From NCBI GenBank assembly GCA_019058445.1, contig JAHPZA010000006.1:448001-512000 (forward strand): a DNA stretch of 64,000 nt. The letters are read 5' to 3'. Shown one piece after another: positions 29,006 to 61,235 of this stretch (position 1 is its first letter; every line of letters begins with the position of its first letter). Below the pieces are notes generated by a model. The model was not told the DNA's origin, made no database searches, and saw only the letters and a program-made list of their open reading frames with translations. Origin of the DNA: Promethearchaeota archaeon (GTDB lineage: Archaea > Asgardarchaeota > Lokiarchaeia > Sigyniarchaeales > SOKP01). Position numbers and translations under genes: made by a program.

Positions 29006-29769
29006 AAGTAAAAAATTTAAATTTTCAATATAATTCTAAGTTTAGTATTCAGGATTTATCAATGAGAATTGAAGAGAACTCTAAATATGCTTTAACCGGA
29101 AATAACGGGGCTGGTAAGACCACGTTATTAAGATTATTGGTAGGTTTATTACGACCAAAATCTGGTACAATTAAAATCTTTGATAAAGCTCTTACCAGAA
29201 AAAAGAAAGATTTATGGCAAATCAGACAAAATATTGGATTTTTATTCCAAAATCCAGATGATCAACTTTTTGCTCCAACTATAGAAGAAGATGTGAGCTT
29301 TGGAGCACGAAATTTAAAACTTGAACCAGAAGAGGTTAAAAGACGCGTTAAATGGGCATTAGAAGCAGTAGATTTAGTAGATTTTAAGGATTTTTCACCC
29401 TTTAATCTATCATGGGGCCAAAAAAAAAGAGCATGCTTGGCAGGATTGCTTGTGATGAAGCCAAAATTATTGATATTGGACGAACCCTTCGCAAATCTTG
29501 ATTTTAAATCAATCATTAACCATCTTGCTATAATAGAAAGATTACGGAAAGAAGAAAATATGACAATTTTATTTACTTCACATAATTTGTTCTTTGTAGA
29601 GCACTGGGCTGATGAGATGCTAGTCTTAAATGAAGGAAGAGGAATTTTTGAGGGACATCCTAGAGAGGGATTGAACCTTCCTAATATTAGAGAAATTATG
29701 GGATCTTACGACGAGATTAGAGATTTAATTCAAAATCACAATTCTAACCAAAAACAATTGATATTTTAA
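28990..29769 (+). CDS. cbiO: ECF ABC ATPase CbiO/NikO (probable ATT start upstream of ATG 29062)
   Basis: GNNGAGKT, FQNPDDQLF, LSWGQ, LDEP; in-frame IIFAVEVKNLNFQY N-terminus after GGAGGT SD. Confidence 0.88.
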   Translation: MIFAVEVKNLNFQYNSKFSIQDLSMRIEENSKYALTGNNGAGKTTLLRLLVGLLRPKSGTIKIFDKALTRKKKDLWQIRQNIGFLFQNPDDQLFAPTIEEDVSFGARNLKLEPEEVKRRVKWALEAVDLVDFKDFSPFNLSWGQKKRACLAGLLVMKPKLLILDEPFANLDFKSIINHLAIIERLRKEENMTILFTSHNLFFVEHWADEMLVLNEGRGIFEGHPREGLNLPNIREIMGSYDEIRDLIQNHNSNQKQLIF

Positions 29770-29870
29770 ATAAAAAGGTTTTACCAGTACTATAAATCTT
29801 AAATTTTATTTTTTTAATTGCTTAAATAAAACCACAAAATTTTTTACTTTCAATTTCTATAATCATTCTT

Positions 29871-30180
29871 GGGAAAGCGATGATGGAATAACTGCGCTTC
29901 GAGGGCACATATGATCGAAGATGAGTATGTGTGCAAAACGGCGCAAACATCCAGAGTTTAATAATCAGTAAGTAAAAAACTGCAAGCAAAATGGGCTCTT
30001 AACTAAGCGATGATAGGTATCAATGCGATGAAGTGGAAGCCAGTTACCCAGATTGCAGATATGATTATGCCCCATAAAGGCATGAAATTAACGCCTAACA
30101 CGAGAGAACTTATTCGATTTTAAGGGAAAATCCTTAAAATGAGAAGTAAGAGTTAGTGCTTTAGGCAACAATAATGCTGA
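29871..30180 (+). ncRNA. Candidate ~310-nt structured ncRNA with C/D-box-like motifs
   Basis: GC-enriched intergenic island with several nested helices; 5' AUGAUGG, 3' CUGA followed by a T8 tract; no ORF. Confidence 0.6.
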
Positions 30181-30204
30181 ATTTTTTTTAAAAAGAAATA
30201 ATTT

Positions 30205-30675
30205 TTAGAAACCAATTGAGTCTGGACTAAATAATTCTTTTAATTCATCGCTGATGGCTTCTTGATCGCTACTTTTTAGGTAACTTTCTAACACAGATGC
30301 AATTTTTGGTGCCCATTTTTTTATGAGAGCACGTACAAAGCCAATTTGAACATTTAGATCAGTCGCTAAACATAATACACCTTTTCCAGTTTTCACAGAA
30401 AAAATTAATCCCTTATCATATTCTGTAATTTGAGTTTTTATGTTTCCATATCCTAAAATAAGCCCTTGTTCTTCTCCAGCTGTAAAAACAGCTCCACCAA
30501 TGGCTCCAATTTTTTCAACAGAAATATCTTTGTTCCCAGAGAAGCTAAATTTAGATTGACTTAAAATAGTGAGGCCTGTATCATCGATAATAATCGCATG
30601 TTTTAATCCTGCGGTACTATTAATTATATTAGTAAGGATTTTCTTTAAAATGGCCTCGTCCTGAGAATAACTCAA
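30205..30675 (-). CDS. Roadblock/LC7 (MglB/LAMTOR-like) protein
   Basis: AIIIDDTGLTI...IGAIGGAVF...ITEYDKGLIF...NVQIGFV. Confidence 0.85.
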   Translation of the reverse strand: MSYSQDEAILKKILTNIINSTAGLKHAIIIDDTGLTILSQSKFSFSGNKDISVEKIGAIGGAVFTAGEEQGLILGYGNIKTQITEYDKGLIFSVKTGKGVLCLATDLNVQIGFVRALIKKWAPKIASVLESYLKSSDQEAISDELKELFSPDSIGF

Positions 30676-36056: not shown

Positions 36057-36302
36057 TCAGACTTTTACAAAAAGTTCATTATATGGGCTAAATTCTTTAT
36101 TCGGCAGAGTTTTAATGGAAATAAATGGTAAAGTTATTGGTCCAAATATTTCTTTAATATACCCTATTTCCTCATAATTCATATTAAAAACAGGTTTACG
36201 GTAAATTTTTTCAAAGTTTCTATTCCATTGTTTCACTCTAAATATTTGATGCTTTTTAGATTTCCCTATGTAGAATAGACTTAGTTTAACCCAACTTTTC
36301 AA
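36057..36302 (-). CDS. gar1: H/ACA RNP protein Gar1/Naf1-like
   Basis: IGYIKEIFGPITLPF motif; conserved position upstream of tfb. Confidence 0.7.
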   Translation of the reverse strand: MKSWVKLSLFYIGKSKKHQIFRVKQWNRNFEKIYRKPVFNMNYEEIGYIKEIFGPITLPFISIKTLPNKEFSPYNELFVKV

Positions 36303-61133: not shown

Positions 61134-61235
61134 GCGCTCTTAGTATAGTGGTTAGAATCTCGGGTTTCCAACCCGAGGACCCGGGAGAGTTCTCCAAATC
61201 GGAGTTATCCGGGACTTCAATTCCCGGAGGGCGCA
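61134..61235 (+). tRNA. tRNA-Gly(TCC) with 30-nt non-canonical intron (61186-61215) at position 53/54
   Basis: Acceptor GCGCTCT/AGGGCGC, anticodon arm TCGGG-TTTCCAA-CCCGA; T arm CCGGG|TTCAATT-CCCGG is restored on removing the intron; BHB motif. Confidence 0.93.

Follow-up and report, generated by a model that had tools for sequence, protein, structure and literature searches.

A conserved Asgard archaeal RNA gene with the likely architecture of a three-module box H/ACA guide RNA

The DNA stretch examined in this study, here referred to as the window, comprises 64,000 nucleotides from a Promethearchaeota archaeon (GenBank assembly GCA_019058445.1, contig JAHPZA010000006.1, positions 448,001 to 512,000 of the forward strand). 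On its + strand, at window positions 29870..30177 (nt 1 = 29870), it encodes a real, expressed RNA of ~308 nt, the product of a single structured RNA gene that is conserved across the Asgard archaea; the limits of the gene follow conservation and RNA-library contigs, and its strand follows G-U pairs. The RNA is very likely a box H/ACA guide small RNA (sRNA) with three modules (H1, H2, and H3) and an unusual architecture, through which uridines of 23S rRNA in the catalytic core of the large ribosomal subunit would be converted to pseudouridines (psi). It departs from described archaeal guide RNAs in a fourth kink-turn (K-turn) outside the hairpins, a closing helix after each ANA box, a 7-bp upper stem in H1, spacers in H2 and H3, and a degenerate ANA in one related family (f2). 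An initial annotation had described an unannotated multi-helix RNA of the guide class, ~310 nt long and rich in L7Ae-type K-turns, and this description is borne out; its proposals as to class and processing are revised below.

Archaeal H/ACA sRNAs are defined by the hairpin-ANA motif, and one, two, or three such motifs per sRNA are known (PMC2377435). The present RNA contains three hairpins with a lower stem, an internal loop forming a pocket, and an upper stem, and all of these stems covary, both in the family of the window's genome (f1) and in the phylum. In H1 (29893..29949, +), the lower stem (29893-29897/29941-29945) and upper stem (29905-29911/29926-29932) flank the 5' guide UUCGAGG (29898-29904) and the 3' guide GCAAAACG (29933-29940), the kink-loop (K-loop) occupies 29912-29925, and ACA stands at 29947-29949. 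Its CGAGG and GCA elements are invariant in 46/46 sequences and adjoin a closing pair that covaries (G-U, A-U, G-C, C-G, U-A). In H2 (29980..30061, +), the lower stem (29980-29985/30053-30058) is combined with the 5' guide AUGGGC (29991-29996), an apical hairpin, K-turn 2 (AA at 30005-30006, GAU-GA at 30027-30031), the 3' guide UACCCAGA (30045-30052), and an ANA box (30059-30061) that reads AUA in this genome and ACA in most; the lower stem, the non-canonical (NC) and canonical (C) stems of the K-turn, and the apical hairpin covary. In H3 (30093..30170, +), a lower stem with a CU bulge (30093-30101/30156-30166) and an upper stem (30109-30114/30145-30150) delimit the loop strands GAGAGAA (30102-30108) and (A)GUUA (30151-30155), followed by ACA at 30168-30170; K-turn 3 is made of GA (30116-30117) and AAU-GA (30138-30142) on the + strand. 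The GAGAG..GUUA pair of H3 is nearly invariant across the phylum, and the module's pairs covary. Tandem G-A motifs are kept in all four K-turns/K-loops: the UGA...AUGA of the H1 K-loop occurs in 38-44 of 46 sequences, and the (A/G)A of H2 and (G/A)A of H3 face AUGA on the bulged strand. An ANA lies directly 3' of the lower stem, as ACA or AUA after all three stems in most sequences, with GCA as an exception in one module of family f4.

The strongest single argument for guide function is a common ruler, i.e., the same distance to the ANA box in front of three different invariant 3' elements. The G of GCA in H1 lies 14 nt from ANA in 43/55 sequences, and a 14-nt distance also separates the start of NACCC(AG) in H2 from ANA in at least 34 sequences, drawn from five families, while GUUA of H3 lies 16 nt before ACA in 35 sequences and 14 nt before it in 5-7. 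In Pyrococcus abyssi, the target U is found 14-15 nt from ANA (PMC2377435), and in Haloferax volcanii distances of ≤17 nt work without ACA and 19 nt with it, and 17-19 nt are tolerated when ACA is present; spacings of 16-17 nt, among them the 16 nt of H3, fall inside the range shown to be active there (PMC7075261). In five genomes of one genus (loci L005-L009), a 10-nt insert (UGUUUCGGCU-like) was seen between GUUAGUG and UUAGGC; to judge from its letters, it resembles a local duplication, and module 3 of that clade may be altered or disabled as a result.

The folding energy of the single sequence is modestly below that of shuffled sequences on the + strand (z = -2.8), a weak signal, and the case for the RNA therefore rests on comparative data. 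In family f1, a model of 68 pairs forms standard pairs in 94.4% of cells, compared with 33-40% when the partners are slid, and 28 pairs show changes on both sides, as opposed to 10-12 in the slid controls; none of 500 shuffles reached the observed value. In the phylum-wide alignments, which were fitted to the models and are biased towards them, 93.8% and 91.3% of cells are paired versus 32-54%. The many G-U pairs in the helices fix the + strand.

Outside the three hairpins, the covarying structure includes a 5' K-turn and three further helices. The bulged strand of K-turn 1 (29875..29887, +) consists of the C-stem strand AAGC, the bulge GAU, the G-A at 29882-29883, and the NC stem strand GGA, and its other strand (29950..29959, +) of UCC, A-G-A (within the D-like CAGA, 29952-29955), and GUUU; the C-stem pairs 29875-8 with 29956-9, the NC stem pairs 29885-7 with 29950-2, and G-A 29882-3 stands opposite G-A 29954-5. 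UGA is kept in 44/46 sequences and YNGA in ~42/46, and both flanking stems covary with compensatory changes. Helix P0 joins GGG (29871..29873, +), invariant in the family, to CCC (30071-30073), and is longer in other families (GCGGG/CCCGC, UGGGG/CCCCA, and CGGGA/UCCCG in a reading by hand). P2 pairs UAAUC (29962..29966, +) with GAUUA (30063-30067) and encloses module 2; compensatory changes occur in two genomes, and other families have AAGCUG/CGGCUU and UUUUC/GAAAA. P3 pairs GCAUGA (30080..30085, +) with the 3' tail UAAUGC (30172-30177) and encloses module 3. Its compensatory variants (GCAUAGAC/GUCUAUGC, GCACAU/AUGUGC, GGUGCCA/UGGCACC, GAGCGCC/GGCGCUC) are accompanied by correlated insertions, and in three genomes the two strands have been lost together. 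P0 meets P2 and the C-stem of K-turn 1 in a three-way junction, and all of the extra parts (the 5' K-turn beside the first ACA, the junction, and the closing helices) are conserved across Asgard families. A module 2 "mid stem" proposed by RNAalifold (GGCU/AGCC) was rejected since it is unconserved outside some families.

Several of the complementary segments listed in the initial annotation reappear in this fold with support from covariation, namely GCGC/GCGC and GCACATAT/ATGTGTGC as the lower and upper stems of H1, CTGCAA/TTGCAG as the lower stem of H2, and GCCTAA/TTAGGC as that of H3. TTTTAAGG/CCTTAAAA does form the apical stem of H3 but is AU-rich, variable, and outside the counted structure. 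The pairing TAACT/AGTTA is not kept in relatives, and the ATGCCC/GGGCAT local hairpin competes with the better-supported long-range pairings GGG/CCC (P0) and GGCAU/AUGCC (P3).

The gene is single copy in the window's genome, and BLAST found homologues, with 71-91% identity, in 22 of the 24 genomes sampled from its family. Conservation runs from UGGGAAA (29870) to AUGC (30177). A covariance model of module 3 matched 92/101 f1 genomes and, weakly, families f2 and f4 of the order, in which a model of the 5' domain (K-turn 1 and module 1) matches ~200 nt upstream of the module 3 match. In the phylum, the latter model matched 49 of 151 sampled genomes; the 24 matches outside f1 fall in six further families, and at the representative loci that were fetched and searched the module 3 model matches downstream. 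The search for Asgard homologues with covariation, which had been put forward as a check, thus returned homologues in several families, with helices that covary. By their NCBI titles, nearly all exact-motif matches are metagenome-assembled genomes (MAGs) of Promethearchaeota; titles naming Hod-, Thor-, Odin-, and Hermodarchaeota were not used as a measure of breadth, as such matches score like f1 members. The homologue of family f28 (locus L200, genome G229) has modules 1 and 3 and no module 2. Neither covariance model matched genus g14 of family f2 (G025, G028, and G032, one of them a one-contig genome), which on the models' evidence may reflect either loss of the RNA or divergence past the models.

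As to expression, RNA-library contigs from three studies cover 29884-30177, with a word depth of up to ~580. Contigs bridge modules 1 and 2 (29884-30043, 29889-30100) and modules 2 and 3 (29954-30104), and one contig ends, joined to adapter, at 30177, the base with which P3 ends and CUGA begins. No RNA-library contig lies on 29700-29875 or 30184-30350, and a DNA run covers 29700-30167 and 30228-30350; this comparison was not counted as evidence. Upstream, a TATA-like A/T-rich box (29836..29847, +) stands ~29 nt 5' of the first conserved G, and a (C)TTTATAA-like block is kept at the same distance in 23 homologues, which makes it a putative promoter. Downstream, the T8 run (30182..30189, +) is a likely archaeal terminator, T-rich runs being found 3' of the RNA in many homologues.

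Protein partners of an H/ACA particle are encoded in the same genome. Cbf5 (82 bits), Nop10 (53 bits), and two L7Ae-family genes (82 and 49 bits) were found above the Pfam cut-offs. The only Gar1 candidate in the genome is an open reading frame (ORF) of 81 aa with a Gar1/Naf1 RNA-binding domain at window positions 36057-36302 (-), 5.9 kb downstream of the RNA gene.

In the proposed mechanism, each module of the single RNA would offer a lower stem, a pocket, an upper stem leading to a K-turn or K-loop as L7Ae site, and an ANA that the PUA domain of Cbf5 would recognise, and a set of Cbf5, Nop10, Gar1, and L7Ae would assemble on each. The fourth, C/D-like K-turn at the 5' end and the closing helices P0, P2, and P3 would join the modules into one ribonucleoprotein (RNP) particle. 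The pocket strands would then base-pair with the stretches of 23S rRNA that flank a uridine, and Cbf5 would convert this uridine to pseudouridine. The data establish the gene and its strand, the fold, its conservation, the spacing of the boxes, the complementarity to rRNA, and the presence of the protein genes, whereas the assembly of the RNP and the modifications themselves are predicted.

Taken over the three modules, both pocket strands are complementary to 23S rRNA around an unpaired UN, with H3 as the weakest case. For H1, the match UUGC-UU-CCUCGA, with 4 + 6 = 10 Watson-Crick pairs around UU, is the top canonical match in f1 and f2; the f2 guide GUAUCGAGG lengthens the duplex to 13 pairs, a score that 0.5% of shuffled rRNAs equal. 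Judged by this complementarity, the target of H1 is probably the first U of UU-CCUCGAUG in 23S rRNA, which we take to be E. coli position 2496. The offset of 369 is constant for m5C2870, Um2921, Gm2922, and psi2923, by which psi2865 of yeast 25S rRNA equals the H1 site; psi2865 is guided by snR46 according to the published table (PMC8307265). Likewise, psi2549, psi2588, and psi2603 of P. abyssi have the same spacing (39 and 15 nt) as psi2826, psi2865, and psi2880 of yeast, which suggests that psi2588 is the H1 site; the guide for psi2588 is motif 1 of Pab40/Pf7, an sRNA with three motifs (PMC2377435).

For H2, the 3' element AACCCAG (UACCCAGA in this genome) finds its complement in CUGGGUU, a sequence unique in 23S and 16S rRNA. 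CUGGGUU is followed in 23S rRNA by an unpaired UA and then by GACCGU, which in an alignment by hand matches the A(C/U)GGNC of H2 (AUGGGC here) at 5/6 positions, so that the pairing at this site amounts to 6-7 pairs plus 5/6 around UA. The third U of CUGGGUUUAG (UUU), E. coli U2586, is the predicted and fairly likely target. The same third U is psi2605 of H. volcanii, guided by stem-loop 1 (SL1) of sR-h45, which uses two A's of its 3' side to pair the first two U's (PMC7075261). The H2 pocket of f2 differs (UGGGCG/CAGC) and finds its best match in the A loop (GCUG-UA-CGCCCA, E. coli U2554); the A-loop U2554 site equals yeast psi2923, guided by snR10 (PMC8307265). As a target of module 2 in f1, the A loop would need an unpaired UNN and an ANA distance of 17-18 nt and was retained as a secondary possibility only.

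For H3, GUUA and GAGAG flank the UAUAA of the helix 69 loop UAACUAUAA (UAAC-UAUAA-CUCUC) with 4 + 5 pairs. That U1915 of the helix 69 loop, perhaps also U1917, is the target is plausible rather than demonstrated, and the case for it is about evenly balanced. Searches of 23 tRNAs and of RNase P RNA gave no target for H3. An alternative H3 target, UAGC-UG-GUUCUC in 23S rRNA (~E. coli 805), was rejected, as the invariant GUUA ignores the variation of this target (UAGC/UUGC/UGGC) and the closing C-G pair would have to be opened. A 9-nt match of CAGUACCCA to UGGGUACUG in 16S rRNA is followed by AG and not by UN, and such lengths are common by chance. AUGGGCUCUUA matches helix 89 of 23S rRNA over 11 nt, and with G-U pairs the match holds across genera; it was rejected as a guide, as it lacks a second arm and stretches of at least 8 nt number 53 compared with 42 expected with shuffled RNA. 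Lenient target scans with one mismatch gave no discrimination.

These comparisons drew on the 23S rRNAs that are assembled in the genomes, among which family f4 has none. In the window's genome (G000), contig C1 carries the 3' part of a 23S gene at the contig end, ~201000-205438 (-) (L104, L117), with peptidyl-transferase centre, A-loop, and sarcin-ricin motifs; a search of this genome with the Rfam large subunit (LSU) models returned nothing, and no 16S was found in the assembly. Two genomes of one genus (L039 in G006, L038 in G002) have large insertions within the peptidyl-transferase region of 23S, domain V, one of ~190-200 nt between CGUCGUGAG and ACAGGUCGG and a shorter one after CCUAUCCUGGGAG. 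The former is absent from other genera and from the window genome's own partial 23S, and the insertions may be rRNA introns or expansion segments. A "16S" fragment in another MAG (L046, genome G011, contig C106) is bacterial-like (ACUCCUACGGGAGGCAGCAGUGGGGAAU) and by that resemblance probably belongs to a contaminant contig.

A number of observations weigh against the assignment as a three-module H/ACA guide. All targets are predictions, as mapped pseudouridines are lacking for every Asgard rRNA; the target sequences in 23S are identical in 30 genomes, which leaves no variation in which guide-target covariation could show. Complementarity to rRNA, proposed earlier as a check, was indeed found in 23S, but for H/ACA pockets, and the scores of single hairpins are often reached by shuffled rRNAs: by 14.5% for H1 in f1, 13% for H2 in f2, and, under relaxed rules, 49.5% for H3 at helix 69, which is not significant alone. 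The 5' arm of H2 has a conserved mismatch, and the 3' arm of H1 is reduced to GCA (3 bp) in some genomes. In P. abyssi assays, an upper stem of 5-6 bp was active and one of 7 bp inactive (PMC2377435), and the upper stem of H1 has 7 Watson-Crick/G-U pairs plus a U-G beside the G-A; the upper stem and the ANA distance add up to the same total in 7 + 14 as in 6 + 15, which may compensate. The upper stems of H2 and H3 are irregular (that of H2 can be drawn in two registers), with 1-5 variable nt between the conserved 3' guide and the upper stem. AAA replaces the ANA, or it is missing, in some f2 modules, and in the five genomes with the 10-nt insert GUUA lies 26 nt from ACA. Behind each ANA box, a further helix closes the internal loop that holds it, an arrangement undescribed in the cited literature that might hinder the binding of Cbf5. 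The Gar1-like ORF scores 25.6 bits, below the Pfam cut-off of 29.3. Finally, the RNA evidence consists of assembled metatranscriptome contigs, which give neither strand nor true ends and may contain DNA, so that expression was counted as supporting evidence only; of the RNA ends that the initial annotation had wished to see, the contigs thus supply the coverage and the adapter join at 30177.

A more far-reaching version of the guide model is doubtful. It holds that a pre-organised particle with three Cbf5 sets and four copies of L7Ae would act on helix 69 and on two sites of the peptidyl-transferase region in a single concerted event during 50S assembly, in an integrated architecture undescribed elsewhere in archaea or eukaryotes, and that the third module is perhaps a structural, K-turn-like L7Ae site and not a guide.

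Among the rival explanations, the best-surviving one is still improbable. The RNA would be a scaffold that binds L7Ae, or a chaperone of rRNA folding, which holds the peptidyl-transferase region of pre-23S rRNA and performs no pseudouridylation. Eukaryotic precedents exist in snR30/U17 and in the processing role of snR10, and the four K-turns and the closing helices exceed the needs of a plain guide. The spacers that set off the 3' arms of H2 and H3 from their upper stems point the same way, as does the extra complementarity of AUGGGCUCUU to helix 89 of 23S rRNA. Moreover, GAGAGAAC/GUUA of H3 is more conserved than a 9-bp guide needs, and a hand reading allows an alternative drawing of this loop as a K-turn-like motif (CAC-GAG(A)-GA-AC / GU-UA-GUG). 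A chaperone, however, has no need for a 14-nt ruler that is shared by three different invariant 3' elements and that would place the U in the active site of Cbf5, and at two of the uridines flanked here, guided pseudouridines are known from other archaea or from eukaryotes (PMC2377435, PMC7075261, PMC8307265).

Marginally less probable again is a precursor that is cut into three single-hairpin H/ACA sRNAs. Three self-contained hairpin-ANA units do stand in tandem, and they are evidently separable in f28, which is without the middle unit. However, P0, P2, P3, and the three-way junction pair different units with each other and covary, library contigs span units 1-2 and 2-3, and the two- and three-motif archaeal H/ACA sRNAs that are known act as single molecules (PMC2377435, PMC7075261). 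The term "polycistronic" used in the initial annotation therefore holds insofar as three guide modules share one RNA, and fails insofar as the closing helices and bridging contigs tie them together. The main reading given there, an unusually long, U3-like C/D-box RNA, which would work with fibrillarin and Nop5, is very improbable. In its favour are the C-like AUGAUGG near the 5' end and, in this genome and close relatives, CUGA near the 3' end. The C-like box, however, has its partner in the internal YNGA (29952-29955) instead of the terminal CUGA, and the latter is absent from most homologues and probably beyond the mature 3' end (the adapter-joined contig ends at its first letter, 30177). 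A C'/D' pair and 12-nt spacers or guides are missing, as is any antisense stretch that terminates 5 nt before a D box; the Rfam models for C/D RNAs and U3 give no match even at E up to 10; and the three hairpins carry the archaeal H/ACA signature.

The motifs on which the C/D proposal was built all stand at the positions once reported: AAGCGATGAT at 29875 and 30005, ATGCGATGAA at 30023, ATGATTA at 30061, and CTGA at 30177-30180, followed by A and then T8 (30182-30189). Two of the C-box-like repeats have a place in the three-module structure, as the bulged strands of K-turn 1 (29875) and K-turn 2 (30023). The repeat at 30005 supplies only the non-bulged strand and C-stem of K-turn 2, and its GATGAT is not conserved; ATGATTA reads as the ANA box plus the 3' strand of P2.

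Known RNA families were also considered. At gathering scores, Rfam returned a single tRNA in the whole window and nothing at the RNA locus, and a permissive scan of 29700-30300 (E up to 10) gave chance matches only (CRISPR-DR33, Afu_254, Yar_1), in line with the absence of a known family. RNase P RNA sits on another contig of the same genome (127.5 bits) and does not match at the locus. An Archaea_SRP search of the window's genome assembly gave no match, and signal recognition particle (SRP) RNA was considered for this reason; relatives that carry the present RNA have their SRP RNA at other loci. The earlier statement that the RNA is neither of the two is thus upheld.

The locus is intergenic, between a + strand ORF for an ABC-ATPase (29062-29769) and a - strand ORF (30205-30675), and its GC content is raised (0.35-0.41 vs ~0.25-0.33 in the flanks), and the sole overlapping ORF in the island initially described as ORF-free is a mechanical frame of 55 aa on the - strand. 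The downstream neighbour (30205-30675, -) encodes a protein of 156 aa with weak matches, both below cut-off, to Roadblock/LC7 and MAPKK1_Int (longin/roadblock fold). The tRNA gene of the window (61134-61235, +; Rfam tRNA, 39.4 bits) is, at 102 nt, longer than a plain tRNA and probably contains an intron.

The guide model makes testable predictions for the closest archaeal relatives of eukaryotes, namely, 23S pseudouridines at the equivalents of positions 2496, 2586, and perhaps 1915/1917, sites that recur in haloarchaea, Pyrococcus, yeast, or human. The covariance models locate the gene across the phylum and allow better annotation of MAGs in which this island is now blank. The fourth K-turn and the helices that enclose the ANA boxes depart from the described archaeal layout and bear on how multi-module H/ACA particles are organised. 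Should the predictions fail, a conserved and abundant Asgard RNA with four K-turns would still need an explanation.

No Asgard H/ACA guide RNA was found in the literature searched or in Rfam. With archaeal C/D-box sRNAs and U3, the RNA shares an L7Ae-type K-turn made from a UGA-containing box and an NGA box; unlike in these, the partner of the K-turn is internal, and D'/C' boxes, methylation guides, and the U3 boxes A, B, and C are absent. The yeast snR46 and snR10 guide psi2865 and psi2923, which are homologous to the predicted target of module 1 and to the A-loop site of module 2 in f2 (PMC8307265), but they are separate RNAs with a two-hairpin H-box/ACA layout and no K-turn (Nhp2 binds differently), and homology of the RNAs is not claimed. 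In sR-h45 of H. volcanii, SL1 makes psi2605, the last U of the UUU that follows CUGGG, in the way that is predicted here for module 2, and SL2 makes the two pseudouridines of helix 69, with UNUN left unpaired, which is also the proposal for module 3 (PMC7075261). The two targets follow in the same order along both RNAs. In contrast to the Asgard RNA, sR-h45 has two modules, and no 5' K-turn or closing helices are reported for it in the cited literature; its activity is experimental, whereas the Asgard activity is predicted. Like the Pyrococcus sRNA Pab40/Pf7, finally, the Asgard RNA combines three hairpin-ANA motifs with K-turns/K-loops and a ruler of 14-15 nt on one molecule (PMC2377435), and motif 1 of Pab40 guides psi2588, the predicted site of module 1, while its motif 3 guides a pseudouridine of helix 69, the region predicted for module 3. 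Sequence or Rfam-model similarity between the two is not detectable, the Asgard RNA is ~100 nt longer, its upper stem in H1 has 7 bp compared with 5-6 bp, the predicted target of module 2 differs, and Pab40 has no counterpart to its three-way junction, to the helix that closes behind every ANA, or to the fourth K-turn, which lies apart from the hairpins.

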